A stretch of DNA of 46,881 nucleotides, taken from a virus. Its lineage: Duplodnaviria; Heunggongvirae; Uroviricota; Caudoviricetes. Below are positions 12,382 to 46,881 of this stretch, one piece after another (the stretch's first letter is position 1; the number at the start of each line of letters is the position of its first letter). Under the pieces are notes generated by a model that was not told the origin of the DNA, searched no databases, and saw only the letters and a program-made list of their open reading frames with translations. Where the stretch lies: the IMG/VR virus record IMGVR_UViG_3300018065_000012; one strand, given 5' to 3'. Both the position numbers and the translations under genes were made by a program.

Positions 12382-12388
12382 AACTAAA

Positions 12389-24987: not shown

Positions 24988-24991
24988 AGCA

Positions 24992-25744: not shown

Positions 25745-26499
25745 TGGCAGAGTTGGCCGTTGACATCAAGCGAATCAAGCAACTTCTGACAAAGAAGAAG
25801 TTGGACAATCTTGGAATCCAGTACAACAGTGCCAATGTTGTTCGGATTACAGATGGCGTTGTTGGAACTGATGATGGTGATGCTATCATGGAAGTCGGTT
25901 CTAACATCGACGTGGATATTTCAACGACTGGAGCAAACGCACTGGATACGGGTACGGTCAGCAATGATACTTGGTATTATCTCTTTCTCATTTTGAACCC
26001 GACGAATGGAACTGTTGCTGGATTGTTTTCATTGAGTGATACTGCCCCTACAATGCCTTCAGGATATACGAAGAAGCGACTTGTTAGTGTTCTTCGATAT
26101 TTCACAGCATCGTTTTCAAATTTCAGGCAATACAATTTTAGGGTGTACTATCCTCAAAATTATACCATCCTTTCTGGTGGGGGAAGCACGAGTCGGGTTC
26201 AACTAAACATAAGCAATTATGCGCCGAATGACTATACTCATTCTGCTCGACTTTTATTTATGGCGAACTGGAATAATGCTTTTGGAAACAGTGTAGTTTA
26301 TCTCGAAGCATTAAGTGGAAGCACCTATCATTACACAAGGGCTGGACTTTTTTCTGGTTCGTGGTGGTATAGATTCAGACAGACAAACGAAGCGGATGTA
26401 GGAATGATGTATGACAATCCCGTGCGTGTTTACTATTACACGGGCGATGCACAATGCCGATGCTCGATTTATGTCAAGGGCTACACGTTGAGATTATAA
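25744..26499 (+). CDS. Tandem paralog 6 of 6 (divergent)
   Basis: Starts at ATG 25744 (TAATG junction; the ORF-track frame opens at 25642). GANALDTGTVSNDTWYYLFLILNPTNGT...APTMPSGYTKKRL, C-terminal KGYTLRL. Confidence 0.55.
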   Translation: MAELAVDIKRIKQLLTKKKLDNLGIQYNSANVVRITDGVVGTDDGDAIMEVGSNIDVDISTTGANALDTGTVSNDTWYYLFLILNPTNGTVAGLFSLSDTAPTMPSGYTKKRLVSVLRYFTASFSNFRQYNFRVYYPQNYTILSGGGSTSRVQLNISNYAPNDYTHSARLLFMANWNNAFGNSVVYLEALSGSTYHYTRAGLFSGSWWYRFRQTNEADVGMMYDNPVRVYYYTGDAQCRCSIYVKGYTLRL

Positions 26500-28055: not shown

Positions 28056-28075
28056 ATAGGTGCAGGAGTTAGCGA

Positions 28076-29311: not shown

Positions 29312-29330
29312 GAAGGTGTAGGAGTCAGAA

Positions 29331-33891: not shown

Positions 33892-33967
33892 GGGGATGTA
33901 GCTCAGTTGGGAGAGCGCTGCGTTCGCAATGCAGAGGTCAGGGGTTCGAATCCCCTCGTCTCCACCA
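33892..33967 (+). tRNA. tRNA-Ala(CGC) with G3-U70
   Basis: Acceptor GGGGATG/CGTCTCC, D GCTC/GAGC, anticodon stem CTGCG/TGCAG loop UUCGCAA, T-arm AGGGG-TTCGAAT-CCCCT, A73, CCA. Confidence 0.75.
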
Positions 33968-33975
33968 AATATAAT

Positions 33976-34052
<77 letters not shown>

Positions 34053-34054
34053 TT

Positions 34055-34130
34055 GGGGGCATAGCTCAGCTGGGAGAGCACAAGCTTTGCAAGCTTGGGG
34101 TCAGGAGTTCGAGTCTCCTTGCCTCCACCA
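34055..34130 (+). tRNA. tRNA-Ala(UGC) with G3-U70
   Basis: Acceptor GGGGGCA/TGCCTCC, D GCTC/GAGC, anticodon stem CAAGC/GCTTG loop UUUGCAA, T-arm AGGAG-TTCGAGT-CTCCT, A73, CCA. Confidence 0.8.
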
Positions 34131-34137
34131 AATACAA

Positions 34138-34271
34138 AAGGCACGCTTCAGTGAAGAGTTACTTCCCTTCGGCGGACGAAGTTCAGGTTCGATTCCTGAC
34201 CCTCCAACCATGATGGAGGGTAGTGTAATGGTAGCACGCGTAAAATATCTCTTTGCGTCTTTTGGTGCCTT
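34138..34271 (+). ncRNA. Bracketed element C1 with a permuted tRNA-like core (acceptor closed by an ACCATGA loop that encodes the discriminator and CCA)
   Basis: Terminal helix AAGGCAC/GTGCCTT; 5' module GCTTCAGTGAAGAGTTACTTC; T-arm TCAGG-TTCGATT-CCTGA; CCCTCCA-ACCATGA-TGGAGGG; D-arm GTGT-AATGGTA-GCAC; 3' module ...CTCTTTGCGTCTTTTGG. The anticodon region is aberrant. Confidence 0.5.
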
Positions 34272-34280
34272 TTATATTTT

Positions 34281-34388
34281 TCAGCACGCTTCAGTGATGA
34301 CATACTTCTTGGTTCAACTCCAACATCGCCCTCTATATGGGCGATGGTGCCACGTGGGTGGCGGTGTTGTTACGTTTTTTGGTGCTGA
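34281..34388 (+). ncRNA. Bracketed element C2 with a permuted tRNA-like core lacking an anticodon arm
   Basis: Terminal helix TCAGCAC/GTGCTGA; T-arm TTGG-TTCAACT-CCAA; acceptor CATCGCC-loop-GGCGATG; D-arm GCCA-CGTGGG-TGGC; 3' module CGTTTTTTGG. Confidence 0.5.
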
Positions 34389-34404
34389 ACTTTTTGAATA
34401 AATT

Positions 34405-34513
34405 CCGGCACGCTTCAGCGTGGGCTTACTTCTTTCTTAAAAAAAGAACCTGCCTGTTCGATTCAGGTGTTGGGTGGACCCGGTACAATTCGCTCATGCG
34501 TCTTTTGGTGCTG
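34405..34513 (+). ncRNA. Bracketed element C3 (anticodon-like arm and T-arm, degenerate acceptor and D parts)
   Basis: Terminal helix CCGGCAC/GTGCTGG (one G-U); TTCTTT-CUUAAAA-AAAGAA arm; T-arm GCCTG-TTCGATT-CAGGT; 3' module GCGTCTTTTGG. Confidence 0.45.
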
Positions 34514-34518
34514 GATTT

Positions 34519-34593
34519 AGCGGTGTTAGTGTATTGGTTGCACATTTGGTTCCCAGCCAGAAGGAGCCAGTTCGAGTCTGGTACACCGCTCCA
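34519..34593 (+). tRNA. tRNA-Gly(CCC)
   Basis: Acceptor GCGGTGT/ACACCGC, D GTGT/GCAC, anticodon stem TTTGG/CCAGA loop UUCCCAG, T-arm GCCAG-TTCGAGT-CTGGT, U73, CCA. Confidence 0.75.
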
Positions 34594-34596
34594 TTT

Positions 34597-34673
34597 GTCA
34601 AGGTAGCTCAGCACGGTAGAGCACTGGCCTGAAGAGCCGGGTGTCGTCGGTTCAAATCCGACCCTTGACGCCA
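34597..34673 (+). tRNA. tRNA-Phe(GAA)
   Basis: Acceptor GTCAAGG/CCTTGAC, D GCTC/GAGC, anticodon stem CTGGC/GCCGG loop CUGAAGA, T-arm GTCGG-TTCAAAT-CCGAC, G73, CCA. Confidence 0.8.
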
Positions 34674-34676
34674 CAC

Positions 34677-34752
34677 GCAGGCGCATGTTCCAAGGCTGGC
34701 GACGGGGATTCCAAATCCTTGTGGGTAGGTTCGATTCCTACCGTCTGCGCCA
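34677..34752 (+). tRNA. tRNA-Trp(CCA), copy 1
   Basis: Acceptor GCAGGCG/CGTCTGC, irregular D-arm, anticodon stem GGGGA/TCCTT loop UUCCAAA, T-arm GTAGG-TTCGATT-CCTAC, G73, CCA. Confidence 0.7.
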
Positions 34753-34755
34753 TAC

Positions 34756-34830
34756 AGGGCCATAGTTTAATTGGTAAAACGGGGGATTCCAAATCCTTTG
34801 ATGCGGGTTCGATTCCTGCTGGCCCTGCCA
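34756..34830 (+). tRNA. tRNA-Trp(CCA), copy 2 (identical anticodon arm, different body, A1-U72)
   Basis: Acceptor AGGGCCA/TGGCCCT, D GTTT/AAAC, anticodon stem GGGGA/TCCTT loop UUCCAAA, T-arm GCGGG-TTCGATT-CCTGC, G73, CCA. Confidence 0.7.
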
Positions 34831-34836
34831 ATCTGT

Positions 34837-34928
34837 GGAGAGTGTTCCCCACGGCAGACTGTAAATCTGTTGCCCATCAGAATAAGTGGGGTGGCGGCGA
34901 ATGGGTTCAATTCCCTCACTCTCCACCA
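34837..34928 (+). tRNA. atypical tRNA-Tyr(GUA)-like, 92 nt: 8-bp acceptor, no canonical D-arm, enlarged variable region (possible pseudo-tRNA)
   Basis: Acceptor GGAGAGTG/CACTCTCC; anticodon arm GCAGA-CUGUAAA-TCTGT; only TT-CCCC-ACG between the acceptor and anticodon stems; GTGGGG in the variable region could pair with CCCC; weak T-stem GGG/CCC; A73, CCA. Confidence 0.4.
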
Positions 34929-34932
34929 TTAA

Positions 34933-35018
34933 GGAGCGGTAGTCTAATTGGTAAGGCAGTGGGCTGTAAACCCACCGGCATTGCGCCATTGGAGGTTCGA
35001 GTCCTCCCCGCTCCACCA
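34933..35018 (+). tRNA. tRNA-Tyr(GUA), class II
   Basis: Acceptor GGAGCGG/CCGCTCC, D GTCT/AGGC, anticodon stem GTGGG/CCCAC loop CUGUAAA, variable arm CGGCATTGCGCCAT, T-arm GGAGG-TTCGAGT-CCTCC, A73, CCA. Confidence 0.8.
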
Positions 35019-35039
35019 TTTTTCTTTTTCAGCAAAAAT

Positions 35040-35061
35040 CTTTTATATTCGGTTGTATAAT
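35040..35061 (+). promoter_or_regulatory. weaker promoter-like site sharing the GGTTGTATAAT -10 element (no good -35)
   Basis: TATAAT 35056-35061 preceded by GGTTG as in the other promoters; the -35 region is CAAAAA. Confidence 0.3.
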
Positions 35062-35083
35062 ATAAGGGTAATTCTCACAGGGG

Positions 35084-35338
35084 ATGAATATGGAAACTCG
35101 GCCAGAAACGGGCAAAATGAAGTTTGGCGACGACTGGTCTGGAATATTCATCCGAGGCGACAATGCTTTCAATTATCATATGCAACTCAAAGAAGTTTTG
35201 AAAGACAATGGCGGTGAATTCGGCATTATTGCGAAACATACAATCCGAGATTTGATTGATCTTTTGGAATCTTGCGAAGAGCATAATGATATCAAACCGC
35301 AAAAATTGAAATCATTCGAGGAATGCCGTTATGAATGA
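35084..35338 (+). CDS. hypothetical protein (84 aa)
   Basis: ORF-track frame; overlaps the dCMP deaminase start by 8 nt. Confidence 0.45.
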   Translation: MNMETRPETGKMKFGDDWSGIFIRGDNAFNYHMQLKEVLKDNGGEFGIIAKHTIRDLIDLLESCEEHNDIKPQKLKSFEECRYE

Positions 35339-35786
35339 TAGACCATCCATTGACCAGACGATGATGGATATTGCAAAAACTTGGTCCTTTCGATCAAGAT
35401 GTTTACGGCGACAAGTGGGTTCAGTAATCGTAAAAGACAAACATGTTTTGACTTCTGGTTATAATGGCCCGCCAAAAGGGTTGCCTCATTGCGATGAATG
35501 TGGTGGTTGTTTGCGGCAAGAAATGGATTTGCCGTCAGGCGAACGTCAAGAACTTTGCAGAGGTTCTCACGCAGAATTGAATGCAATTATTCAAGCGGCA
35601 ATATTTGGGATAAGCGTAAAAGGCGCAACGCTGTATTGCACAAACTTTCCTTGTAACTTTTGTGCCAAAGCAATTGTTCAAGCTGAGATTAAAAAAGTCA
35701 TTTACGAAGATGACTATACGGAAGACGATAACATGGCAAAACAAATGCTTGAACATGTTGGAATTAAAATGGAGAAATTTGAATGA
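35331..35786 (+). CDS. cd: dCMP deaminase (cytidine/deoxycytidylate deaminase family)
   Basis: Zinc-binding HAELNAI and PCNFCAKAI (H[AC]E...PCxxC) motifs; size and context as in T4-type dCMP deaminases. Confidence 0.8.
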   Translation: MNDRPSIDQTMMDIAKTWSFRSRCLRRQVGSVIVKDKHVLTSGYNGPPKGLPHCDECGGCLRQEMDLPSGERQELCRGSHAELNAIIQAAIFGISVKGATLYCTNFPCNFCAKAIVQAEIKKVIYEDDYTEDDNMAKQMLEHVGIKMEKFE

Positions 35787-35962
35787 GCTGGAAAGATTTT
35801 CTTTACGGCGCGGCATCTGTTCTCGACTTGTCTGGTTCAATGGGCAATGCGCAAGTGAATGAAATTTTGCGCAAGTCTGACGCGGAAGCATTGAGGTCAG
35901 ATTGGGAAGCAGTTGGACAAGACATGTGGAAGGCGATTGAACAATCTGAAGATGTCGGGTGA
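35783..35962 (+). CDS. small acidic hypothetical protein (59 aa), translationally coupled to cd
   Basis: ATGA overlap with the cd stop; MSWKDFLYGAASVLDLSGSMGNAQVNEILRKSDAEALRSDWEAVGQDMWKAIEQSEDVG*. The stop lies inside the next tRNA. Confidence 0.45.
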   Translation: MSWKDFLYGAASVLDLSGSMGNAQVNEILRKSDAEALRSDWEAVGQDMWKAIEQSEDVG

Positions 35963-36038
35963 GCGCAGCTGGTGCTGTGAGTGGCCTGCAAAGCCATTTG
36001 GCCTTTGGGTCCAACTGGTTCGATTCCAGCATCCGACT
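35954..36038 (+). tRNA. tRNA-Sec-like (8/4 'allo-tRNA' architecture) tRNA with GCA (Cys) anticodon
   Basis: 8-bp acceptor GTCGGGTG/CATCCGAC; 6-bp D-stem CGCAGC/GCTGTG with 4-nt loop TGGT; 6-bp anticodon stem AGTGGC/GCCATT with loop CUGCAAA; long variable arm TGGCCTTTGGGTCCAA; 4-bp T-stem CTGG/CCAG with loop TTCGATT; U73; no encoded CCA. Confidence 0.5.
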
Positions 36039-36056
36039 CTAATTTGGAGAACATGA

Positions 36057-36311
36057 ATGCCAAAAAGAAGTTTCCCGCTCAAGATCAGTTTTGATCATGA
36101 AATTGATCGAGATACGATGTTTTTTCTTGCTGTAAAGTTTGCGAGAGAATATCCAAAAGCAGCGACACAAATAATTGGAGCATTGGAAGGGGAACGGAAA
36201 TATTGCAAGATCAATTGTCCGTTCCCTTTTGTATGTAGTGAGTTTCCTTGCAAAACGCTTTGTTGTAACGCAGACTGCTGCGACAACGGCCACGCTTATA
36301 GGATGAGCTGA
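36057..36311 (+). CDS. hypothetical Cys-rich protein (84 aa)
   Basis: GGAG SD. The C-terminus has CKINCPFPFVCSEFPCKTLCCNADCCDNGH. Confidence 0.45.
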   Translation: MPKRSFPLKISFDHEIDRDTMFFLAVKFAREYPKAATQIIGALEGERKYCKINCPFPFVCSEFPCKTLCCNADCCDNGHAYRMS

Positions 36312-36685
36312 TGCAATACGAACTTGAAAATGGTTACAAGGTTTGGGTGAACGCGAAGACTTACCGCTCGAAATTGAACAAGCAAGTTTGCATCAAATGT
36401 TTGAAACAGTATTGGCCAGATGCAGATTCCGTTTGGGATGTTCAAGCAGAACTGAAATGGGAAGAAGGCAGGTTGTATATTTGTCCTTGTTCTTCTGTTA
36501 ACGGGCGCGATGAAAACCGCAGAGCAGGCCGATACAACGAAGGCCGGTTGATCGAACACGACCCACCGGAAGCTTGCCCATTCAAAACAGAGCATCTTGT
36601 CAGTTGTAATAAACAAGGTTTCATCTATTATAAAAGCCGCATTGAGGAGTATTGCGAAAAGAATTTCAAAAAGGTGAAAAGGTGA
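36311..36685 (+). CDS. hypothetical protein (124 aa, Cys-containing)
   Basis: TGATG overlap with the upstream gene. Confidence 0.5.
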   Translation: MQYELENGYKVWVNAKTYRSKLNKQVCIKCLKQYWPDADSVWDVQAELKWEEGRLYICPCSSVNGRDENRRAGRYNEGRLIEHDPPEACPFKTEHLVSCNKQGFIYYKSRIEEYCEKNFKKVKR

Positions 36686-36873
36686 AGCTGATTGTAAAAT
36701 TTGTCGTCTTGATTGCTGGAAGTTATCTTTGCTATTTGTCTTGGGCTGAGCCAAAAACAATTATTTGGCTGTATGGAAATTATATCATGCCGGTTTTCTT
36801 TGCATGTATTCCGTTTTATGCAGCATGGTGGTGCTATCAAGACTTAAAGAGCGCCCGTAGCTCAGATGGATAG
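36682..36873 (+). CDS. small membrane protein (about 63 aa, two hydrophobic helices)
   Basis: GTG start overlapping the upstream TGA (GTGA). VKLIVKFVVLIAGSYLCYLSW...IMPVFFACIPFYAAWWCY. The 3' end overlaps tRNA-Arg(CCG). The ORF-track frame starts at 36652. Confidence 0.4.
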   Translation: MKLIVKFVVLIAGSYLCYLSWAEPKTIIWLYGNYIMPVFFACIPFYAAWWCYQDLKSARSSDG

Positions 36874-36927
36874 AGCGTCTGCCTCCGGAGCAGAAGGTCA
36901 CAGGTTCGAGTCCTGTCGGGCGTGCCA
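36851..36927 (+). tRNA. tRNA-Arg(CCG)
   Basis: Acceptor GCGCCCG/CGGGCGT, D GCTC/GAGC, anticodon stem TCTGC/GCAGA loop CUCCGGA, T-arm ACAGG-TTCGAGT-CCTGT, G73, CCA. Confidence 0.8.
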
Positions 36928-36946
36928 AACATACGAGGATGAAAGA

Positions 36947-37204
36947 ATGATAATCATGGAGCATGGAAACGTCGATAAACAAGTACCCAATCAAGGCGCG
37001 TGGGATATTCATGTTGCGGGGCAAGAAAAATATCCACTGGTGGTGATCCTTTGTCCCAAATGTCAAAAAGTATCTTGTCTCCGTAATCATACGATTCATC
37101 GCGACGGGACAGTTTCACCAAGCTTGGTCTGTCCAAGAGATGAATGTAATTTTCATGAAATGATCAAGTTGAAAGACTGGAAAGGGTTGCCTCAAAAATT
37201 GTAG
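36947..37204 (+). CDS. small zinc-ribbon-like protein (85 aa)
   Basis: ATG 36947 after GAGGATGAAAGA (the ORF-track frame from 36866 opens inside the tRNA). CPKCQ...CPRDEC. Confidence 0.45.
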   Translation: MIIMEHGNVDKQVPNQGAWDIHVAGQEKYPLVVILCPKCQKVSCLRNHTIHRDGTVSPSLVCPRDECNFHEMIKLKDWKGLPQKL

Positions 37205-37207
37205 TTT

Positions 37208-37283
37208 GGGCCGGTAACTCAATTGGTAGAGAACCGTTCTTATACAGCGGTAGTCGTTGGTTCGAATCCAACCCGGCCTACCA
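37208..37283 (+). tRNA. tRNA-Ile(UAU)
   Basis: Acceptor GGGCCGG/CCGGCCT, D ACTC/GAGA (3 bp), anticodon stem CCGTT/AGCGG loop CUUAUAC, T-arm GTTGG-TTCGAAT-CCAAC, A73, CCA. Anchored to ORF-track TTG 37223. Confidence 0.75.
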
Positions 37284-37304
37284 AATTCAAGATGGAGTGG
37301 AATT

Positions 37305-37559
37305 ATGAAAGAGGGACGCATAAGCAAAGGTGGCGTGGGAAATCCTCCAACAAGACCAAGACCCAAGCCACCAAAGGGACAAGGAGGCTCTCAAAAGTTG
37401 AAAGAAGTTTTGGAAGCCCTTGAATTCTATGCTGATGAAAGCAATTGGAAAAACGGGACGTCAGTTCATTACGAATGGGCGACGTTTGCTGAGTTGGATG
37501 AAGGCAAACGGGCAAGAAAAGCACTTGAAAAATATCGGGGTGTAGGAAAGTCTGGTTAA
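37305..37559 (+). CDS. hypothetical protein (84 aa)
   Basis: ATG 37305 after GGAGTGG (the ORF-track frame starts at 37257 inside the tRNA). The last 24 nt overlap tRNA-Pro(CGG). Confidence 0.4.
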   Translation: MKEGRISKGGVGNPPTRPRPKPPKGQGGSQKLKEVLEALEFYADESNWKNGTSVHYEWATFAELDEGKRARKALEKYRGVGKSG

Positions 37560-37613
37560 TCCGCTACGTTCGGGACGTAGAGATCGCCGGTTCAAATCCG
37601 GCCACCCCGACCA
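37536..37613 (+). tRNA. tRNA-Pro(CGG)
   Basis: Acceptor CGGGGTG/CACCCCG, D GGAA/ATCC (3 bp), anticodon stem CTACG/CGTAG loop UUCGGGA, T-arm GCCGG-TTCAAAT-CCGGC, A73, CCA. Confidence 0.8.
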
Positions 37614-37629
37614 CTTTAGGAAAAGGCTG

Positions 37630-37764
37630 ATGAACGATCCAAAAGCTTATCAATACACAGGCTCATTGAGTGACAAGTTCTTTATTGTGTTGATCATTTT
37701 AGCAATGATTTCTGTTCCTATTTTTATTATAATTGCGTTTTTGTATTGGGTTCCAAGGAGCTAA
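37630..37764 (+). CDS. small single-TM membrane protein (44 aa)
   Basis: AGGAAAAGG SD then ATG 37630. MNDPKAYQYTGSLSDKFFIVLIILAMISVPIFIIIAFLYWVPRS*. The stop lies 1 nt before the next ATG. Confidence 0.4.
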   Translation: MNDPKAYQYTGSLSDKFFIVLIILAMISVPIFIIIAFLYWVPRS

Positions 37765-37765
37765 A

Positions 37766-38008
37766 ATGCTTTACACGGTTGGCGAGACAGAAAAATACGA
37801 GCAATATATAAAAGAGCAAGGCACGATTTCAAAGGCAGTTGGTGGCTCAGTTTGGAGTTCAAAAGAAGCCGCGCAAAAGTATTTGAAAGAAAGAGGGTTG
37901 CTTGGAAAATTTACTGTTTACGGCATTGACGCCGGTTGGAATGATACTGAATATACAGGTAATCCTTGGCGTGATTTGAAAATTGTTGCAAAAATAATTG
38001 AACTTTGA
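37766..38008 (+). CDS. hypothetical protein (80 aa)
   Basis: ATG 37766 after AAGGAG (the ORF-track frame starts at 37733). Confidence 0.5.
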   Translation: MLYTVGETEKYEQYIKEQGTISKAVGGSVWSSKEAAQKYLKERGLLGKFTVYGIDAGWNDTEYTGNPWRDLKIVAKIIEL

Positions 38009-38082
38009 GCGGGTGTAGCTTAATGGTAAAGCTCCAGCCTTCCAAGCTGATCACGTGGGTTCGATTCCCATCGCCCGCTCCA
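38009..38082 (+). tRNA. tRNA-Gly(UCC)
   Basis: Acceptor GCGGGTG/CGCCCGC, D GCTT/AAGC, anticodon stem CCAGC/GCTGA (C27/A43 mismatch) loop CUUCCAA, T-arm GTGGG-TTCGATT-CCCAT, U73, CCA. Confidence 0.7.
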
Positions 38083-38087
38083 TTTAA

Positions 38088-38161
38088 GCGGCTGTAGCTC
38101 AGTGGTAGAGCGCAAGGTTGCCAATCTTGCTACGAGGGTTCGATTCCCTTCAGCCGCTCCA
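38088..38161 (+). tRNA. tRNA-Gly(GCC)
   Basis: Acceptor GCGGCTG/CAGCCGC, D GCTC/GAGC, anticodon stem CAAGG/TCTTG loop UUGCCAA, T-arm GAGGG-TTCGATT-CCCTT, U73, CCA. Confidence 0.8.
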
Positions 38162-38223
38162 AAATTAAAGATGAAACGGAGATATATGATGAGCCAATCA
38201 CCTTTTGTTCGGGGGATTACATC

Positions 38224-38481
38224 ATGGACGCTCCAAAATGCGAACATCTGTTACCATTTTTGCAAGCTCAAACGCGGCTGATAACAAAACATTTGGGCGA
38301 GCATAAATGGTTCCAAAAAATTGAAAGTGAAAATGAAGCAGTTGGAGATTTCATTGAAAAGTTTGGGTGGGTAATGCGAGAATTCTTTTGTGGTTATTGT
38401 TGTGAACATCGTTATGAATGCGACATTGCCATAGAATACGATTTCTTGCCGCCAGAGAGGAAAAAGCAAAATGACCCTTGA
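38224..38481 (+). CDS. hypothetical protein (85 aa, Cys/His-containing)
   Basis: ORF-track frame; a GGGGGA lies upstream. Confidence 0.4.
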   Translation: MDAPKCEHLLPFLQAQTRLITKHLGEHKWFQKIESENEAVGDFIEKFGWVMREFFCGYCCEHRYECDIAIEYDFLPPERKKQNDP

Positions 38482-39274
38482 AGAAGCACGCAAACTTGTT
38501 TTGAAATCATTCAACAAAAGTGATTTCTATTACAACCATCAATCGCCGCATGGCTATACAAACTTCATTGACGGGATGGCGTGGGTTGGTTTATTGTGCG
38601 GCGCATGTCATCTTGTGGATGACAAAGAGTTGGCGGCATTAGCAGAAAACTACTTGAGAATGCTTTTGAAAGTTGGACCGGATGCAAGAAATTATGCGCC
38701 GATGAAAGTAAGAGACGACTGGATCAAATCTGAAACAGCTCCCGGATTTTGGTACCGTAAAAAGCCGCAGTCCTTCGCGGGGCCAGCGGCTTTATTGTTT
38801 GCTATCAACTGCGGCGCAAAATTGGATAACCCCTTCAACATTGAATCACGTGCCAAGTGGATGCGTTTCTTAAATCCATTCTTTGGTTATCTTGTGCGTT
38901 GGTTTCATTGGTTCAGACAGCATATCAATAGTCAGTTTATCGCTCATTTGATTAACGATTCCAAACCGCCAAGCTCAATGCTTTGGTTGTGCGAGGAAAA
39001 TCCTTTTTTCAGCGCTATTGCTGGAATTGAATGCAGTGTTGAATACCCGAAATCATGGAGCCGGTTTCAAAAGTATGAAACAAAAGACGTGGACGATATT
39101 CAACCGCTGAAAAACCGGAAACCATCAGCTTGGATTTTCAGAAGTTGGCCCAAGGCCGAATACACTGGCGCACTTCCTTACGCGGGCAGTGCTTATACGC
39201 CAACGGCAATGGTTGTTGGTGAATATTTGCAACAGCATTTGAGGAAGAAAAATGCCAAAGTACAAGACAGTTGA
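38471..39274 (+). CDS. hypothetical protein (267 aa, Trp/Phe-rich)
   Basis: Overlaps the upstream gene by 11 nt. No motif recognised. Confidence 0.5.
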   Translation: MTLEEARKLVLKSFNKSDFYYNHQSPHGYTNFIDGMAWVGLLCGACHLVDDKELAALAENYLRMLLKVGPDARNYAPMKVRDDWIKSETAPGFWYRKKPQSFAGPAALLFAINCGAKLDNPFNIESRAKWMRFLNPFFGYLVRWFHWFRQHINSQFIAHLINDSKPPSSMLWLCEENPFFSAIAGIECSVEYPKSWSRFQKYETKDVDDIQPLKNRKPSAWIFRSWPKAEYTGALPYAGSAYTPTAMVVGEYLQQHLRKKNAKVQDS

Positions 39275-39491
39275 GGAACTTGCGCAAGCATTCCAAACAG
39301 GTGAGTTTGGAGCAGATGGTCAAGTTATCAAGATTGAATCGGATGACATAAACGCTTCATTGGTTCGGGTAACTTGCGCAGAGGAAAGTCCTGACGAGTT
39401 TGAAATAATGTTCGAAGGATACGTACAAGGCGGTTATACAAAAGTGAAAAACGAGCTTGGGCCGTCTTTTGGAAGAGCGAAAAAAGAATGA
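39252..39491 (+). CDS. hypothetical acidic protein (79 aa)
   Basis: Overlaps the upstream gene by 23 nt. Confidence 0.45.
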   Translation: MPKYKTVEELAQAFQTGEFGADGQVIKIESDDINASLVRVTCAEESPDEFEIMFEGYVQGGYTKVKNELGPSFGRAKKE

Positions 39492-39494
39492 CGT

Positions 39495-39571
39495 CGGGGT
39501 GTGGCTCAGCTTGGTAGAGCGCTTGACTGGGGGTCAAGAGGTCGCTGGTTCAAATCCAGTCACCCCGACCA
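39495..39571 (+). tRNA. tRNA-Pro(GGG)
   Basis: Acceptor CGGGGTG/CACCCCG, D GCTC/GAGC, anticodon stem CTTGA/TCAAG loop CUGGGGG, T-arm GCTGG-TTCAAAT-CCAGT, A73, CCA. Confidence 0.8.
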
Positions 39572-39586: not shown

Positions 39587-39814
39587 ATGATAGACAAAAA
39601 GCAAATAGAAATCGAAACACTAAAGCATAAAGTCAACGAACAAAAAGCGTTCATAATGCATTTGAAACGACTTTATGGCAGCGCGAGGCGGTGGGAACTT
39701 TCAAGAACGACACAGTGCCACAAGTGCCACGTCGACGCGGATGCTGAATTTTTTGCATTCATGAGAGCAATGCCTCATATTGAATGGGACAACTGGGGAA
39801 ACGCTAAAAAATGA
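39587..39814 (+). CDS. hypothetical protein (75 aa)
   Basis: ORF-track frame; Cys/His pairs (CHKCH). Confidence 0.45.
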   Translation: MIDKKQIEIETLKHKVNEQKAFIMHLKRLYGSARRWELSRTTQCHKCHVDADAEFFAFMRAMPHIEWDNWGNAKK

Positions 39815-40113
39815 GTTGGGCGAAGTATGCAAAAGAAACGTTGAAAAAGGGTCTTGACGCGGCTGTAAAGCCTCGTGGAAGCTCAATGAAGCCAAAGATT
39901 GAAAGTGGTGACGTTGTAACCATTGCCCCTTGTGACCCGTTCAGACTCAAGGTGGATGATATTGTTTTGGTTACAGTAAAAGGGAAAGACTATTTGCATT
40001 TGATCAAGGCGGTTGATAGCAAAAGGTTTTTGATTGGAAACAATCGTGGCGGGATAAATGGCTGGGTTGGCTGGAACTCAATTCATGGAAAAGCGGTAGA
40101 GGTTTCAAAATGA
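39811..40113 (+). CDS. S24/S26-like serine peptidase fold protein (LexA/UmuD/signal-peptidase-like catalytic domain only)
   Basis: GSSMKPKIESGDVVTI (cf. GDSMxPxxxxGDxxxV) and a downstream Lys in HLIKAV. ATGA overlap with the upstream gene. Confidence 0.45.
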   Translation: MSWAKYAKETLKKGLDAAVKPRGSSMKPKIESGDVVTIAPCDPFRLKVDDIVLVTVKGKDYLHLIKAVDSKRFLIGNNRGGINGWVGWNSIHGKAVEVSK

Positions 40114-40646
40114 TTCGACGTATCAACTTGTACGCTGGCCCATGTGCAGGAAAGTCGACCATTGCGGCGCATGTGTTTTCTCATTTCAGAGCCAAGCAAG
40201 TCAACATTGAGCTTGTGACAGAATATGTGAAATCTTGGGCATATGAAGAGCGCAAAATTACATCGTATGATCAATTGTACTTACTCGCAAAACAGTTGCG
40301 GCAAGAGGATTTAATTTTGCGAAACGGAGTTGACCTAATCGTAACGGATTCCCCGATTTTACTTTCTGCTTGTTACGCGCAGAAATATGGGTTTCCAAGC
40401 GTTTCTGCGTTGCGGGAAATTGCTGCTGAGTTTGAGAAAACATACCCGTCGTTAAACATTTTTATCGAACGCGGAAGGACGCCTTACAATCAAAGTGGTC
40501 GTTACGAGACTTACGAACAAGCAGTTGAGATGGATGCGGCAATTGAAAAAACCATTTTTGCTGCTGGGGTTAAAGAGTTGTTCAGCGTATCATTGGATAC
40601 TGAAATAATTATCAAATTGATTGAAACAAAGTTAGAGACTTTTTAA
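40110..40646 (+). CDS. P-loop NTPase (predicted kinase/AAA-like ATPase)
   Basis: Walker A GPCAGKST near the N-terminus. ATGA overlap with the upstream gene. Confidence 0.55.
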   Translation: MIRRINLYAGPCAGKSTIAAHVFSHFRAKQVNIELVTEYVKSWAYEERKITSYDQLYLLAKQLRQEDLILRNGVDLIVTDSPILLSACYAQKYGFPSVSALREIAAEFEKTYPSLNIFIERGRTPYNQSGRYETYEQAVEMDAAIEKTIFAAGVKELFSVSLDTEIIIKLIETKLETF

Positions 40647-40654: not shown

Positions 40655-40682
40655 TTGAAAGCTGTCGGCTTGGTTGTATAAT
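40655..40682 (+). promoter_or_regulatory. sigma70-like promoter TTGAAA-N16-TATAAT (copy 4)
   Basis: TTGAAA 40655-40660, spacer ending GGTTG, TATAAT 40677-40682. Confidence 0.55.
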
Positions 40683-41002: not shown

Positions 41003-41494
41003 ATGAGAAAGTGGCGCGTAATCCGAGATTTTTACCTTGGAGAGTCTGATCGCATCAAAGCGAGAAATCCGAATGAAGACAATTTCATGCTTTATGAAGG
41101 CACAATTATCTATGAGGCAGAAAATACCGATCGCGTAGTCATCAATGGAAAAGTTTATCATTTCAGAATTGGAACAGTTTTTACTCGCTTTTGCGTTCTT
41201 GAAGAAACACTTCCAGAATCGGTTACAGGCGACACAATGCCGGGTGGGGTGTTACCAGCGGACCTTGTTTGGAAAGGTCCAAGTGATCTGACCACCATCA
41301 TCGCCGGGAAACGATATCAAACCCCAGATAGATTTTTTGAGGAGAGTCTCGTTGTTGCAATTCGTGGTTTGATTGTTGCCGATGAAAATGTCGATGGATT
41401 CACAATCATCGACGACCAAACATTTGAAATGAAAGAAACCTACACAAAACCGAAGGATTGGATCATGTGTGGGTATGTTAAGAAAAGCTCATGA
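41003..41494 (+). CDS. hypothetical protein (163 aa)
   Basis: ORF-track frame; its stop overlaps the start of the collagen-like gene (ATGA). Confidence 0.5.
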   Translation: MRKWRVIRDFYLGESDRIKARNPNEDNFMLYEGTIIYEAENTDRVVINGKVYHFRIGTVFTRFCVLEETLPESVTGDTMPGGVLPADLVWKGPSDLTTIIAGKRYQTPDRFFEESLVVAIRGLIVADENVDGFTIIDDQTFEMKETYTKPKDWIMCGYVKKSS

Positions 41495-44400
41495 CACGTA
41501 GCCTTCTCAGCCAATCACTCCAAGTCGATGCTTCCGCAACTTATGATGATACTATAGCTTCAGTACATACTCAACCTGTTGCGGAAGGTCAAGCCAATCT
41601 TGAAGGTGATCTGAATGTTCTTCGTACGTTATTGAAGAATTTGATCGGAGAACCTGATTGGTATGACCCCGCTGAATTATCGATGAAGGAACTTGCTGAT
41701 AAGTTCCTGATGGAAGCACTCCATCAGAGTGGTTTTGAAAATGTCACGGTTGGAACGGGAACCAGCACAACAGTTTTTGATGGCCCAATCAAGTCAATCG
41801 CGAATCACAACAATGGTCAAGGTTCTTCCACTGTTGAGGGCGTCGTCGTTGACTCGGAAAGGGCATATCGACTCTTTATTCGAGACCATGATTCAGGCGA
41901 CCCAATTTCAGACGGCAGCGGAAATGCAGTTTATGGCCGTTTGAGTTTTGGCGCTGGTACATATACGATAAGTTGGCACACCTTCAATGGTGGTTCTGAG
42001 TCAACTTACAACTTCACTTCCCCTATCGACCTTGATCTTGCGTTTGTCGCTGTTTCAAGGCAGTTCAAAAATCTTGATTGGAATCATTTTCTTGACGTTG
42101 AATTTTATGACATCGGTATCGGCGGCATTGGTTCGCAAGGTAACCAAGGAAATCAAGGTGACGTTGGCATCGATGGAGTTCAGGGGCCGCAAGGAAACAC
42201 GGGTATTGACGGCGTTCAAGGCGGCCAAGGACGCCAAGGAAATCAAGGCGAAGTTGGTGAGTCTGGCGTTCAAGGTTATCAGGGTTGGCAAGGTACCATT
42301 GGAGTTGATGGCGTTCAAGGAGCGCAAGGAAATCAAGGAAATATTGGTATCGACGGTGTTCAAGGCGCACAAGGCAATCAGGGTGACATTGGTACAGACG
42401 GTGTCCAAGGTGGTCAAGGCGTTCAGGGTTGGCAGGGAACGGGTGATACAGGCCCGCAAGGAAACGACGGTGTTCAGGGCTGGCAAGGTGATTTTGGAGC
42501 GCAAGGTAATCAAGGCGACGAGGGCACAGGCAATCAGGGCAACCAAGGGCCAGCAGGAATTGATGGACAGCAAGGTGCTCAAGGTGATGTAGGTATTCAG
42601 GGCTATCAAGGCAATCAGGGCTTCATCGGCGTTCAAGGATTTTCTCCGCAAGGTTGGCAAGGCCCACAAGGTGGAATTGGCGTTGATGGCGTCCAAGGAA
42701 ATCAAGGACGACAAGGTAATCAGGGCAACGCTGGCGACACTGGCGGGCAAGGTCGTCAGGGTGCGCAAGGCGCTGTCGGTGCTGATGGATTCCAAGGAAA
42801 TCAAGGCGACATAGGCGTTGATGGAGTTCAAGGGCCGCAAGGCAATGTTGGTTTGCAAGGCGTTCAAGGATGGCAAGGCGACCAAGGCGTTGACGGTGTT
42901 CAGGGCAACCAAGGTAATCAGGGTGATGTTGGCTCTGATGGTGCTGACGGTGCGCAAGGCCGTCAGGGAAATCAGGGTCAAGTTGGTGACATCGGCGCAC
43001 AAGGAGCGCAAGGCTGGCAAGGACTTCAAGGTATTGACGGAGTCCAAGGCAATCAGGGTGTTGCGGGTGACATCGGTTTCCAAGGCGCACAGGGTTATCA
43101 AGGAACAGGCGTACAAGGTAGTCAGGGAAACCAAGGAGACATCGGTGTTGACGGTGTTCAGGGAACGCAAGGCAATCAAGGTGACATCGGTGTTGATGGA
43201 GTTCAGGGGCCGCAGGGTGACGTTGGTATTGACGGTGTCCAAGGCGTTCAAGGTTCGCAAGGCAATCAAGGTCAAGTTGGAGATACCGGAGCGCAGGGTA
43301 ACCAAGGACGCCAAGGAAATCAAGGTCAAGTTGGAGATACAGGCTCTCAAGGCAACCAAGGAGATATCGGCGTTCAGGGTGCGCAGGGCAATCAAGGACT
43401 TCAGGGTGACCAAGGCGTAGATGGTGTTCAGGGCAGTCAAGGTAACCAAGGCGACATTGGTGTTGATGGAGTACAGGGTGCGCAGGGCAATCAAGGACTT
43501 CAGGGCGACCAAGGAATTGACGGAGTTCAAGGCACTCAAGGTTGGCAAGGTATAGTTGGCTTCCAAGGTAATCAGGGTTTGCAAGGGATAGACGGTGTTC
43601 AAGGTAATCAAGGTTCGCAAGGAAATCAAGGTCAAGTTGGAGATACGGGTTCGCAAGGAACACAGGGCAACCAAGGAGATGTAGGACAAGACGGCGTTCA
43701 AGGGAACCAAGGCCGTCAAGGAAATCAGGGCGACATCGGTGTTGACGGTGTTCAGGGCAGTCAAGGTAATCAGGGCGCTGTTGGCGTTGATGGAGTCCAA
43801 GGCGTGCAGGGCGATGTCGGTTCTGATGGAGTCCAAGGTGTTCAGGGAAATCAGGGTTGGCAAGGAGATGTCGGCATTGATGGCGTTCAAGGCCCACAAG
43901 GTAACGTGGGTGTCGACGGCGTTCAAGGCGTACAAGGCTCTCAGGGTTGGCAGGGAATTGACGGAGTTCAAGGCGTACAAGGTTGGCAAGGACTTCAAGG
44001 CGACCAAGGAATAGATGGCGTTCAGGGCAATCAGGGAAATCAGGGTTCACAAGGCAATCAGGGTGAAGTAGGCGATACTGGAACACAAGGGACGCAGGGC
44101 AACCAAGGCATTATTGGACAAGATGGAGTTCAGGGTAACCAAGGTCGTCAAGGGAATCAAGGTGCTATCGGTGTTGATGGCGTTCAAGGCAATCAGGGGA
44201 ATCAAGGCGACCAAGGGATAGATGGAGTACAGGGTAATCAAGGTTGGCAAGGAACGGGCGACACAGGGGCGCAAGGCAGTCAAGGCAATCAGGGTTGGCA
44301 AGGTGAATTTGGCCCACAAGGAGATGAAGGCACAGGCAATCAGGGTTCACAGGGGCCAGCGGGAATTGATGGTACACAGGGTTTCCAAGGTTCTGACGGT

Positions 44401-46881
44401 ACGCAAGGTTGGCAAGGCAATCAAGGTTATTTGGGGCCACAGGGTTATTCTCCGCAAGGTTGGCAAGGAGCGCAGGGAAATCAAGGCGATATTGGTTCTG
44501 ATGGAGTTCAGGGCGTACAAGGAAATCAAGGGGACGTAGGTGATACAGGCATTCAAGGAAATCAAGGCAATCAGGGCGATATCGGTATTGATGGAATCCA
44601 AGGGCCACAGGGGAATCAAGGTAATCAGGGCGCAGTTGGTGTTGATGGCGTCCAAGGCGTTCAAGGAAACCAAGGTGACGTAGGTGATACAGGTAGTCAG
44701 GGGGCGCAGGGCAACCAAGGCATTATTGGACAAGACGGAGTTCAGGGCAACCAAGGTTCACAAGGAAACCAAGGTCAAGTTGGCGATACAGGCTCTCAAG
44801 GAAATACTGGTGCTGATGGAGTTCAAGGCAATCAAGGAGCGCAGGGGAACCAAGGCTTACAAGGCGATACTGGCGATACAGGCGTACAAGGAAATCAAGG
44901 TTGGCAGGGTGTTGTTGGCGCTGATGGAGTTCAAGGTGCGCAAGGGGACGTAGGTGCGGATGGCGTACAAGGCAATCAGGGTTGGCAAGGTGCTATCGGT
45001 GTTGATGGAGTTCAGGGCAGTCAAGGAAATCAGGGCGATATTGGTGCGGATGGTGTTCAGGGTTCACAAGGGAATCAAGGCGTTGTTGGTTCTGATGGAG
45101 TCCAAGGCGTTCAAGGCAACCAAGGCGACGTAGGCGATACGGGCATTCAGGGTTCACAAGGTTCGCAGGGCAACGTTGGTCAGGACGGGGTTCAGGGAAA
45201 TCAGGGAGCGCAAGGAAATCAAGGTCAGGTTGGAGATACAGGTTCGCAAGGTAATCAGGGCTGGCAAGGAACAGGCGATACAGGCGTACAAGGAGTGCAG
45301 GGAAACCAAGGCGATGTTGGCTCTGATGGAGTTCAAGGCGCACAAGGTGACGTAGGAGATACAGGCGCTCAAGGTAATCAGGGCGCAGTTGGTGCGGATG
45401 GAGTCCAAGGGAATCAGGGAAGTCAAGGAGACGCTGGTACTGATGGCGTACAAGGCAATCAGGGGAATCAGGGTTCTATTGGCGTCGATGGGGTTCGGGG
45501 TAATCAGGGACGACAAGGTAATCAGGGCAATGCTGGCGACACAGGCACACAGGGGAATCAGGGCAACCAAGGAAATGTCGGTCAGACAGGCGTACAAGGG
45601 AGTCAGGGAAACCAAGGCGATGAAGGTACTGACGGGGCGCAAGGCAATCAAGGCAATACAGGCGCACAAGGGAATCAGGGCAACCAAGGAAACGTAGGAC
45701 AAGACGGTGTTCAGGGAAATCAGGGAAACCAAGGCGATGAAGGTTTCCAAGGTTATCAAGGGACAAATCCCGGTGTTCAAGGGCCGCAAGGTTGGCAAGG
45801 ACAAGATGGCCTCGGCGCTGCTGCTACTCTTGGAGAGTTGTACGCAAAGGATTATGGAACAGGACAAACGCTGGATACCGTCAACACGTGGGAAGTGGTT
45901 GAAGCCCTTGCGACGGCTGGCAATAGTTACAACACCACTCTAAGCACCGTAAACCATACCATTACAGTGTTGAAAACGGCACTGTATAACATGGATTGGC
46001 AAATATCGTTCAGTGGCACAGCAAACCATCAAATGGAGTTTGCTGTCTTTGTAAACAATGTTGCTCAGAATGACACGTATCAAGAACGAAAACTGAATGC
46101 AAATGGTGATACAGGCAATGTTGGCGGCACTGCAATTCTGTCATTGACTGCTAACGACGTTGTTGATTTGCGTGTTCGGGATACGACATCTTCTGGAAGC
46201 ATCACTGTAAATCATGCGAATCTTAACGTTGATGAAATTGTTGGTGTTGGGCCGCAAGGAGTTCAGGGCGCACAAGGCAATGATGGAGTTCAGGGAAATC
46301 AAGGTAATGTAGGTGATACAGGCGATACAGGAGCGCAAGGAAATCAAGGTTGGCAAGGTGATGCTGGCACGGACGGCGTACAGGGAAATCAAGGCAATCA
46401 GGGCTGGCAAGGAACGGGCGATACAGGAGCGCAAGGAAATCAAGGAGATGTAGGACAAGATGGAGTCCAAGGCAATCAGGGTAATCAAGGGGATGTAGGC
46501 ACTGATGGTTCACAAGGAAATCAAGGCTTACAAGGCGATACTGGCGATACAGGTGCACAAGGAAATCAAGGTAATGTAGGTGATACAGGCGTTCAAGGCG
46601 CGCAGGGTCGTCAAGGGAATCAGGGCGACATTGGCGATACAGGAGCGCAGGGGAATCAAGGAAACGTAGGACAAGATGGAGTTCAGGGAAATCAAGGCAA
46701 TCAAGGATGGCAAGGTACGGGTGATACAGGGCCACAAGGGTATCAAGGTTGGCAGGGAGATGAAGGTTCACAAGGCAATCAAGGATGGCAAGGTTGGCAA
46801 GCAAGCGGTGGCGAAGAAAGAGCGTTGTTCTGTTGTTCGTTCTTTACTTCAAAGCGGTCATACATTGAGTATTCACAAACA
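41491..46881 (+). CDS. Giant collagen-like (Gly-X-Y) protein, open at the window end (more than 1796 aa): N-terminal 210-aa non-collagen domain, about 1200 aa of GXY triplets, an internal 150-aa C1q/BclA-CTD-like globular insert, then GXY resumes
   Basis: Read in frame from ATG 41491 with no stop to 46881. It is absent from the ORF track, which appears to list only stop-closed ORFs. Translation from 42121 is GGIGSQGNQGNQGDVGIDGVQGPQGNTGID...; the insert at about 45790-46250 has beta-rich TNF/C1q-like sequence (...ITVLKTALYNMDWQISFSGTANHQMEFAVFVNN...DLRVRDTTSSGSITVNHANLNV). Confidence 0.75.
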   Translation, partial: MTRSLLSQSLQVDASATYDDTIASVHTQPVAEGQANLEGDLNVLRTLLKNLIGEPDWYDPAELSMKELADKFLMEALHQSGFENVTVGTGTSTTVFDGPIKSIANHNNGQGSSTVEGVVVDSERAYRLFIRDHDSGDPISDGSGNAVYGRLSFGAGTYTISWHTFNGGSESTYNFTSPIDLDLAFVAVSRQFKNLDWNHFLDVEFYDIGIGGIGSQGNQGNQGDVGIDGVQGPQGNTGIDGVQGGQGRQGNQGEVGESGVQGYQGWQGTIGVDGVQGAQGNQGNIGIDGVQGAQGNQGDIGTDGVQGGQGVQGWQGTGDTGPQGNDGVQGWQGDFGAQGNQGDEGTGNQGNQGPAGIDGQQGAQGDVGIQGYQGNQGFIGVQGFSPQGWQGPQGGIGVDGVQGNQGRQGNQGNAGDTGGQGRQGAQGAVGADGFQGNQGDIGVDGVQGPQGNVGLQGVQGWQGDQGVDGVQGNQGNQGDVGSDGADGAQGRQGNQGQVGDIGAQGAQGWQGLQGIDGVQGNQGVAGDIGFQGAQGYQGTGVQGSQGNQGDIGVDGVQGTQGNQGDIGVDGVQGPQGDVGIDGVQGVQGSQGNQGQVGDTGAQGNQGRQGNQGQVGDTGSQGNQGDIGVQGAQGNQGLQGDQGVDGVQGSQGNQGDIGVDGVQGAQGNQGLQGDQGIDGVQGTQGWQGIVGFQGNQGLQGIDGVQGNQGSQGNQGQVGDTGSQGTQGNQGDVGQDGVQGNQGRQGNQGDIGVDGVQGSQGNQGAVGVDGVQGVQGDVGSDGVQGVQGNQGWQGDVGIDGVQGPQGNVGVDGVQGVQGSQGWQGIDGVQGVQGWQGLQGDQGIDGVQGNQGNQGSQGNQGEVGDTGTQGTQGNQGIIGQDGVQGNQGRQGNQGAIGVDGVQGNQGNQGDQGIDGVQGNQGWQGTGDTGAQGSQGNQGWQGEFGPQGDEGTGNQGSQGPAGIDGTQGFQGSDGTQGWQGNQGYLGPQGYSPQGWQGAQGNQGDIGSDGVQGVQGNQGDVGDTGIQGNQGNQGDIGIDGIQGPQGNQGNQGAVGVDGVQGVQGNQGDVGDTGSQGAQGNQGIIGQDGVQGNQGSQGNQGQVGDTGSQGNTGADGVQGNQGAQGNQGLQGDTGDTGVQGNQGWQGVVGADGVQGAQGDVGADGVQGNQGWQGAIGVDGVQGSQGNQGDIGADGVQGSQGNQGVVGSDGVQGVQGNQGDVGDTGIQGSQGSQGNVGQDGVQGNQGAQGNQGQVGDTGSQGNQGWQGTGDTGVQGVQGNQGDVGSDGVQGAQGDVGDTGAQGNQGAVGADGVQGNQGSQGDAGTDGVQGNQGNQGSIGVDGVRGNQGRQGNQGNAGDTGTQGNQGNQGNVGQTGVQGSQGNQGDEGTDGAQGNQGNTGAQGNQGNQGNVGQDGVQGNQGNQGDEGFQGYQGTNPGVQGPQGWQGQDGLGAAATLGELYAKDYGTGQTLDTVNTWEVVEALATAGNSYNTTLSTVNHTITVLKTALYNMDWQISFSGTANHQMEFAVFVNNVAQNDTYQERKLNANGDTGNVGGTAILSLTANDVVDLRVRDTTSSGSITVNHANLNVDEIVGVGPQGVQGAQGNDGVQGNQGNVGDTGDTGAQGNQGWQGDAGTDGVQGNQGNQGWQGTGDTGAQGNQGDVGQDGVQGNQGNQGDVGTDGSQGNQGLQGDTGDTGAQGNQGNVGDTGVQGAQGRQGNQGDIGDTGAQGNQGNVGQDGVQGNQGNQGWQGTGDTGPQGYQGWQGDEGSQGNQGWQGWQASGGEERALFCCSFFTSKRSYIEYSQT

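Follow-up and report, generated by a model that had tools for sequence, protein, structure and literature searches.

Collagen-like fibres are well described in phages and in particles derived from them. The tail fibres EPclA-D of Escherichia coli O157 prophages form trimeric triple helices with trimerisation domains as caps (PMC3368898), and in the fibres of phage-tail-derived injection systems collagen shafts are joined to TNF- or C1q-like domains (PMC12923769). Two trimeric, fibrous proteins are attached to capsids, the collagen-like auxiliary protein gp12 of SPP1 and the head fibre gp8.5 of phi29 (PMC7602432). In Bacillus, the collagen regions of the Bcl proteins range from 27 to 1,158 residues (PMC8968730). 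Here we describe a gene at the end of the IMG/VR virus record IMGVR_UViG_3300018065_000012 (46,881 nucleotides; Caudoviricetes), hereafter the window, whose product carries 1,416 residues of collagen-like repeat with a C1q/TNF/BclA-type knob set inside them. The protein is probably one of three identical chains in an adhesion fibre of great length and flexibility on the virion of a very large tailed phage.

Reading frame, full length and coding strand

Frame 1 is open on the plus strand from the ATG at 41491 to the window end at 46881, which gives 1,797 codons without a stop. The closest in-frame stop on the 5′ side lies at 41479-41481, and this ATG is the first start past it. The original prediction, made from the letters of the window, had proposed a giant collagen-like open reading frame (ORF) of more than 1796 amino acids, and the open codons, the repeats and the family score given below agree with it. 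It was also right that the start is coupled to the upstream gene through an ATGA overlap (41491-41494), and that the frame was missing from the ORF list because ORFs running off an end go unlisted. The positions of this gene, its parts and its neighbours are collected in Table 1.

Table 1. Positions of the features discussed, in window coordinates unless contig L001 is named.
Feature	Position	Strand	Description
Collagen-like fibre gene	41491..46881	+	cut at codon 1797 by the contig/window end; full in L001:10489-16173
N-terminal non-collagen domain	41491..42120	+	aa 1-210; presumed virion-attachment module; GE(P/T)(N/D)WYD motif
Collagen block 1	42121..45816	+	aa 211-1442, 1,232 aa; ~352 nm if triple-helical; underlying 15-residue (45-nt) period
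Break cluster 1	42433..42660	+	aa ~315-390; three breaks: GTGDTG ... DEGTGNQG ... GFSPQG
Break cluster 2	44248..44460	+	aa ~920-990; three breaks
C1q/TNF/BclA-type jelly-roll knob	45817..46248	+	aa 1443-1586, 144 aa; inside the collagen rod
Collagen block 2	46249..46800	+	aa 1587-1770, 184 aa; ~53 nm if triple-helical; two G-T-G-D-T-G breaks
C-terminal globular domain, first 27 codons	46801..46881	+	aa 1771-1894 in L001, 124 aa
Upstream ORF, 163 aa	41003..41494	+	stop/start overlap with the collagen gene as ATGA
Sigma-70-like promoter match	40655..40682	+	TTGAAA-16-TATAAT, 11/12; 5′ of the 163-aa ORF; L001 9653-9680
Largest minus-strand ORF	42055..44007	-	650 aa, Leu-rich low complexity; complement of GGN-NNN-CAR repeats
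Other minus-strand artefact ORFs	42623-44086, 45154-45867, 46223-46804 and others	-	same origin as the 42055..44007 ORF
Two long fibrous-looking proteins	14415-17288 and 18991-21873		957 aa and 960 aa
Mtd-like paralogues, five or six in tandem	21886-26499		~250-285 aa; first three with 73-78% DNA identity
Three tandem beta-helix paralogues	26820-30569		411-412 aa; right-handed beta-helix, tailspike/depolymerase-like
Sugar-modifying genes	5121-5894, 9325-10317, 17666-18796, 31064-32521, 32636-33571		GT2, GDP-mannose-dehydratase-like, two GT1-like, NAD epimerase
Triple-GT2 protein	L001 18281-20492		about 1,002-1,005 aa; just beyond the window; position relative to the collagen gene kept in three related phages
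Caspase-family Peptidase_C14 protein	156-1103		315 aa; Pro-rich N-terminal stretch

A look-up via the upstream protein recovered the same sequence in six assemblies or samples. One of these, L002, matches the window at 100% identity and forms one end of a 338,319-bp contig (ENA ERZ27256780 k141_931436); the truncation of the gene here is thus due to a contig end. Another, L001, is 99.975% identical over 15.9 kb and contains the complete gene. In L001 the stop lies 97 codons past the window end and the complete protein has 1,894 amino acids; the extension also revealed a C-terminal globular domain that had been outside the view of the original prediction. Over its final ~30 nt the window departs slightly from L001, owing either to contig-end noise or to a variant. 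A circular joining of the window, with the ORF continuing at base 1, was rejected: the window start is unrelated and the true continuation is the one in L001.

The upstream ORF keeps its position in related phages, in which it has 160-161 amino acids, and matched no family in Pfam and PHROG scans. The promoter match before it may drive this ORF and the collagen gene as a two-gene unit, which is only a hint; sigma-70-like matches in the region are no more numerous than expected from shuffled sequence.

Two related contigs, L007 and L011, carry orthologues and allow the coding strand to be examined. Differences between the window and L007 at codon positions 1/2/3 number 42/17/100 in the N-terminal domain and 101/80/283 in the collagen region. 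Over 980 aligned collagen codons, the window and L011 share 66.5% nucleotide identity; the amino acid identity is 74.2% in the plus frame and 30-62% in the other five frames. Codon comparisons of this kind show a plus frame under purifying selection. The plus frame being the conserved one, the minus-strand ORFs are artefacts of the repeats, as had been supposed; as real genes they were rejected on this conservation, on the third-position bias and on their Leu-rich, low-complexity products.

The longest exact repeat within the gene is 32 nt, far under read length. Five assemblies (L002-L006) nevertheless have contigs that break inside the gene, and short-read assemblers seem often to break at collagen-like repeats. 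Such repeats also occur among the hits to virally encoded CRISPR-array predictions (clustered regularly interspaced short palindromic repeats; PMC12607003).

A proline-poor rod, an internal knob and two end domains

The Pfam Collagen family (PF01391) is matched at E=4.8e-194, with 628.8 bits against a cut-off of 27.2. Counting runs of at least five, 465 Gly-X-Y triplets are present, in two blocks that together would measure ~405 nm at 0.286 nm per residue if triple-helical. Glutamine takes 63% of the Y positions, followed by Asp (12%) and Val (8%), with Thr at 5%, and the X positions are held mostly by Asn (23%), Val (18%) and Asp (13%), in agreement with the predicted frequency of Q, D, V and N. 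The repeats are strongly acidic (K+R 10 versus D+E 127), contain 1.0% Pro and include GDT in 20 of the 465 triplets and GPT in none; the usual triple-helix-stabilising composition of imino acids, charge pairs and glycosylated Thr was thus not found. Gln-rich bacterial collagens exist (PMC8968730), so that the atypical composition is compatible with a helix.

The triplets are not uninterrupted, contrary to what had been described. They contain 11 short one-residue breaks, of the forms G-T-G-D-T-G, G-F/Y-S-P-Q-G and G-T-N-P-G, six of which fall in two conserved clusters that are both present in the orthologues and are identical to each other at 69 of 95 positions. The expected return of the triplets at 46250, after the insert, corresponds to block 2 at 46249-46800; the last 27 codons of the window, at 46801-46881, belong instead to the C-terminal globular domain.

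The L011 orthologue is intact, with 1,688 amino acids, and that of L007 is split by a frameshift. Both share the N-terminal domain (79-83% identity), the rod, the two break clusters and the C-terminal domain, and neither has the knob. The rod of the knob-less orthologue has ~1,352 residues versus 1,416 here, and hence the knob appears to have been inserted into a continuous rod, ~87% along its length. In L007 (4953-9949) the frameshift lies within the repeats and leaves ORFs of 1,434 and 216 amino acids; it is either an assembly error or a real variant.

The insert had been described as a beta-rich domain of about 150 amino acids resembling C1q, TNF and BclA. The likeness stands at the level of fold and superfamily, for a domain of 144 amino acids, and it does not extend to membership of the curated BclA_C family (PF18573), for which the knob scores 21.7 bits against a cut-off of 38 (E=1.9e-4). 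In the knob-family alignment, 31 of 53 members match BclA_C at E<=0.01, the best at 7.6e-9. By these profile scores the knob belongs to a related, more divergent family and is not a curated BclA_C member. A word-indexed homologue search with the knob returned nothing, and a PDB sequence search with the knob alone nothing meaningful; an exhaustive HMMER search of representatives clustered at 50% identity gave 1,628 relatives (E<=0.001). The 53-sequence profile matched gC1q chains (C1ql1 at E~1e-3) and, more weakly and without significance, TNF-family ligands and collagen X NC1 (E 0.5-1).

AlphaFold2 run on the single knob sequence gave a useless model (pLDDT 43), and a monomer model built from the 53-sequence alignment was used instead (pLDDT 95.5). 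The modelled knob is all-beta, with a ten-strand jelly-roll superposable on the C-terminal domains of gC1q, TNF and BclA. Its structural comparison lists one figure for each known structure: ExsFA, 17.2; ectodysplasin A, 16.6; cerebellin, 16.1; F-BclA, 15.9; BclA, 15.5; cyanophage A4 tail fibre, 15.2; cyanophage A-1(L) tail fibre, 14.7; collagen VIII NC1, 14.4; TM4 gp23 receptor-binding domain, 12.8; and PRD1 P5, 11.9. In a viral structure library the knob had 734 matches at E<=0.001, many of them from uncultured tailed phages and several of these annotated as collagen-repeat proteins. Known phage receptor-binding proteins use this fold. Where the structure of a phage relative has been solved, it is mostly that of a tail protein or a receptor-binding domain, and in the case of PRD1 P5 that of a spike at the capsid vertex.

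Among the best 150 of the 1,628 relatives, the knob-family domain is at the extreme C-terminus in 122, where a distal tip for binding or trimerisation would be expected to lie. Here it is internal in the 1,894 residues and followed by 184 amino acids of collagen and a further domain, a position different from the terminal one of BclA_C-type domains. Gly-X-Y repeats flank the knob on both sides in six of the same 150 representatives (P0003, P0006, P0027, P0028, P0069 and P0081), and the arrangement of a knob within collagen is thus rare but recurrent. C1q, TNF-ligand and BclA-type domains of solved structure are homotrimers about a three-fold axis, and in C1q/TNF domains both chain ends lie on one face of the trimer. 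By analogy with these relatives, the knob would form a homotrimer about such an axis.

The GE(P/T)(N/D)WYD core of the N-terminal domain is invariant, including in its more distant relatives. Residues 1-210 gave no match in Pfam, PDB or GenBank phages and only sub-threshold ones in PHROG (E 0.012-0.07, unknown function), and no known tail-fibre attachment domain was found by the same searches. For PDB, both a single sequence and a 4-sequence profile were used (a single sequence and a 3-sequence profile for the C-terminal domain). The domain was absent from 185,579 bacterial and archaeal genomes, and its family was seen only in viral contigs, within structural regions. In P0001 and P0002 (363 aa, ~50% identical over the N-domain) it is joined directly to a non-collagen distal part. 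Profile comparison recovered distant relatives (hhalign probabilities 97.8% and 93.6%), and L013, L014, L016, L017 and L024 carry related N-termini with different distal parts in phage structural regions. The N-terminal domain is, from these architectures, a module reused across viral proteins. The C-terminal domain has no PDB, Pfam, PHROG or GenBank-phage match, and its only relatives are the orthologues; that it is a second, divergent C1q-like copy was rejected (hhalign probability <1%).

Genomic neighbourhood and source phage

The source is a very large uncultured phage, whose relatives are catalogued as viral genomes in IMG/VR. Searches of GenBank phages with the flanking DNA, the N- and C-terminal domains and the L013, L016 and L017 relatives gave only transfer RNA (tRNA) matches or nothing. 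The window has 47 tRNA genes, all on the plus strand (2585-13244 and 33892-39571), covering 20 of 20 amino acids with about 45 anticodons and no suppressor tRNA. This set, within ~17 kb, is unusually complete even for a huge phage.

L001, L007 and L011 keep the same gene order: the 160-163-aa ORF, the collagen gene, small ORFs, genes for proteins of 252, ~140 and ~63 amino acids, and the ~1,005-aa triple-GT2 glycosyltransferase. The small ORFs 3′ of the collagen gene matched nothing in Pfam and PHROG scans. Two sugar-nucleotide dehydratase/epimerases are present in the window; a GT1 and an epimerase gene lie upstream of the collagen gene, and P0003, the closest knob relative, also adjoins an epimerase. 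These sugar genes suggest that the fibre may be glycosylated, with Thr sparse in the repeats.

Fibre-like genes lie 11-27 kb upstream of the collagen gene. The 957-aa protein has 7-residue ‘V-V-D-S-x-V-x’ repeats and tail-needle-like PHROG matches; the 960-aa protein has Ig-like and structural-protein matches; and the Mtd-like paralogues weakly match the second domain of Bordetella phage Mtd and a tail-fibre PHROG. At 39811-40646, just 5′ of the promoter-like site, an S24/CI-repressor-like ORF of 100 amino acids overlaps an AAA_28/thymidylate-kinase-like ORF of 178 amino acids. Upstream of the window in the same phage, L008 carries at 5984-8600 an anaerobic ribonucleotide reductase (NrdD) and a radical-SAM activase-like gene, a gene pair that may hint at an anaerobic host; an HNH endonuclease is also found upstream of the window. 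In L007 (15077-18998), a radical-SAM protein, a GT1-like protein and a Ro60/TROVE plus vWA protein are encoded 3′ of the triple-GT2 gene.

Probable function and comparison with known fibres

We propose that the gene product is carried on the virion as a trimeric adhesion fibre. The N-terminal domain of 210 residues would fix the fibre to the particle, and the two collagen segments, of 1,232 and 184 residues, would form the Gly-X-Y triple helix, held mainly by Gln at the Y positions and not by proline. The two conserved break clusters could act as kinks or hinges, and the lineage-specific insertion at 87% of the rod would add a trimeric, ligand-binding bead. The conserved C-terminal domain of 124 residues would be the distal tip and would probably also nucleate trimer formation. 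Such a fibre would make the first, reversible contact with the host surface. The earlier guess of a tail fibre or surface filament is consistent with everything found in the sequence.

Five points weigh against this proposal. Neither end domain matches a characterised anchor or receptor-binding family in the searches made. The low proline content, together with 24 Trp at X positions, puts the stability of the predicted triple helix in doubt. As both chain ends of C1q/TNF domains lie on one face of the trimer, the exit of the second triple helix from the knob is unexplained. No tail or head module can be recognised around the gene, whose neighbours are tRNAs, glycosyltransferases and genes of nucleotide metabolism. 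Finally, full-length relatives of the N-terminal domain are found in head modules and only a ~65-residue relative in a clear tail-fibre slot, which makes the assignment to the tail weak.

Of the two sites of attachment we slightly favour the tail, a fibre on the head or neck being nearly as likely: the solved phage relatives of the knob come from tails, tail fibres of the collagen type are common, and other fibre-like genes are nearby. Distant relatives of the N-terminal domain occur in both types of module. A capsid or neck fibre (head hair, whisker or filament) would be a sub-variant of the same virion fibre, anchored by the N-terminal domain to the capsid or connector like SPP1 gp12 and phi29 gp8.5, but hundreds of nanometres long. 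Relatives covering most of the N-terminal domain (~residues 18-204) do sit in head-morphogenesis blocks: in L016 the order is head protease, head structural protein, N-domain gene and head-tail adaptor; in L017 it is portal, major head protein and N-domain gene; in L024 a protease-like gene is upstream of the relative; and in L014 the N-domain gene is 5.5 kb upstream of the portal. SPP1 gp12 provides the precedent of a collagen-like capsid binder (PMC7602432). However, these relatives are only 23-27% identical and represent two or three independent lineages, and L031 and L030 carry the N-terminal motif in a slot ordered tape-measure, tail-protein, X and endolysin, the L031 relative sharing the first ~65 residues only. 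A neighbour in L013 has weak tail-fibre matches, the solved phage relatives of the knob are mostly tail proteins or receptor-binding domains, and in the phage of the window itself the collagen gene is not beside head genes. We regard a capsid or neck fibre as possible, and hold it tentatively.

A bolder form of this idea, which we consider rather unlikely, is a collagen ‘hair’ or head filament of ~0.4 micrometres on a very large phage, with almost no proline, stabilised by Gln and perhaps glycosylated, its helix longer than that of vertebrate fibrillar collagen and with a trimeric knob within the rod. In such a filament, a phage equivalent of the BclA nap or of mimivirus fibrils, the chain would have to follow an unusual path, for instance with the knob as a bead on the side of the rod or with the two triple helices joined in a hairpin.

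We give little credence to a non-virion product, that is, a cell-made or exported, glycosylated collagen-like surface or matrix protein that, like the BclA nap, would alter the host envelope, aggregation or superinfection. The gene is found among accessory and not structural genes, in a neighbourhood whose sugar-nucleotide enzymes and ~1,005-aa triple-GT2 protein are kept in three related phages, P0003 adjoins an epimerase, and BclA, the closest characterised analogue combining knob and collagen, is a glycosylated cell-surface nap (PMC8968730). On the other hand, the N-terminal sequence shows no signal peptide or anchor motif, its family is confined to structural regions of viral contigs, and Thr at only 5% of Y positions makes BclA-type O-glycosylation sites sparse.

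It is just as improbable that the Gly-X-Y region is not triple-helical and is instead a spacer, disordered and Q/N-rich, or some other fold that depends on glycine, for example a polyproline-II bundle. The 1.0% Pro, the lack of a hydroxylase context and the common Trp, Val and Ile at X and Y would suit such a fold, and polyproline-II bundle domains are found in phage adhesins (bioRxiv 10.1101/2023.11.25.568672). Against it, glycine is strictly placed at every third residue over 1,395 residues and is kept across orthologues at 66% nucleotide identity; the breaks resemble those of true collagens; Gln-rich, low-Pro bacterial collagens fold (PMC8968730); and the repeat is flanked by the fold that caps collagen stalks in C1q, collagen VIII/X, ectodysplasin A and BclA. 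Polyproline-II bundles, moreover, would need far over one-third glycine and turn segments, which are absent here.

Scarcely credible, finally, is an artefact in which the repeats were mis-assembled with a knob from another gene or a minus-strand ORF is the true gene: the contig ends of L002-L006 and the split L007 orthologue would fit it, but the 32-nt longest repeat and two separate assemblies that agree through the knob (99.975% over 15.9 kb) make mis-assembly very unlikely, and plus-frame conservation, third-position substitution bias and the Leu-rich low complexity of the minus-strand products speak against the other strand.

The proposed virion fibre is closest to EPcl and to uncharacterised ‘Collagen triple helix repeat’ proteins of uncultured tailed phages in BFVD (such as A0A6J5Q2Q7 and A0A6J5MA04), which end in a C1q-like domain with a fold similar to the knob (TM 0.74-0.82). 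What they have in common is a phage-encoded N-terminal anchor, a collagen rod and a globular cap. Unlike them, the protein described here has no PfN, PCoil or PfC domains by Pfam, its rod is several times longer with 1% proline, the knob is internal, an orphan C-terminal domain is added, and the gene is outside any recognisable tail module. The six metagenomic proteins with knobs between Gly-X-Y runs belong to the same knob family, the P0003 knob being 46% identical, and P0027, on a phage contig carrying a terminase, has three or more knobs strung along collagen. These proteins are uncharacterised, much shorter (20-115 triplets), of GPT/GPQ-type collagen and with different terminal domains.

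For the capsid fibres SPP1 gp12 and phi29 gp8.5, the parallel is that distant relatives of the N-terminal domain hold an equivalent gene position, after the major head protein (L016, L017 and L024). SPP1 gp12 is set apart by its description as small, with few triplets and no knob, and the gene in this phage is not near head genes. The vertex spike P5 of PRD1, a tailless, membrane-containing phage, combines a collagen-like stretch of few triplets with a C-terminal TNF-like knob, and no sequence similarity between it and this protein was detected. In comparison with BclA, ExsFA/BxpB and F-BclA, there is no spore context, no exosporium-targeting N-terminus and no GPT-type Thr-rich repeats, and the knob is internal; the features of an exosporium nap (spore-former context, targeting N-terminus and Thr-rich triplets) are therefore lacking. 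In metazoan C1q, cerebellin/C1ql, adiponectin, collagen VIII/X NC1 and ectodysplasin A, the head is always terminal, the stalks are short and rich in proline or hydroxyproline, and identity to the knob is 5-14%.

If the rod folds as predicted, it would be among the longest collagen triple helices of any virus or prokaryote, and Gln at Y with essentially no proline could hold a helix of such length, which would be useful for studies of triple-helix stability and for the design of recombinant, hydroxylation-free collagens. In the knob, nature would provide a clear case of a domain inserted into a triple helix, with knob-less orthologues for comparison. The gene also suggests that huge phages carry capture fibres of great length and flexibility, and it defines a virus-only family of putative N-terminal anchors with the GE(P/T)(N/D)WYD motif. 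The basic picture is unchanged, as collagen-like fibres with TNF- or C1q-like tips were already known in phages and phage-tail-like systems. This protein is an extreme and unusually constructed member of an established class of phage fibre and not a new system, and is distinctive in its length, its composition of 1% Pro with Gln-rich Y positions, its mid-rod knob and its uncharacterised end domains.

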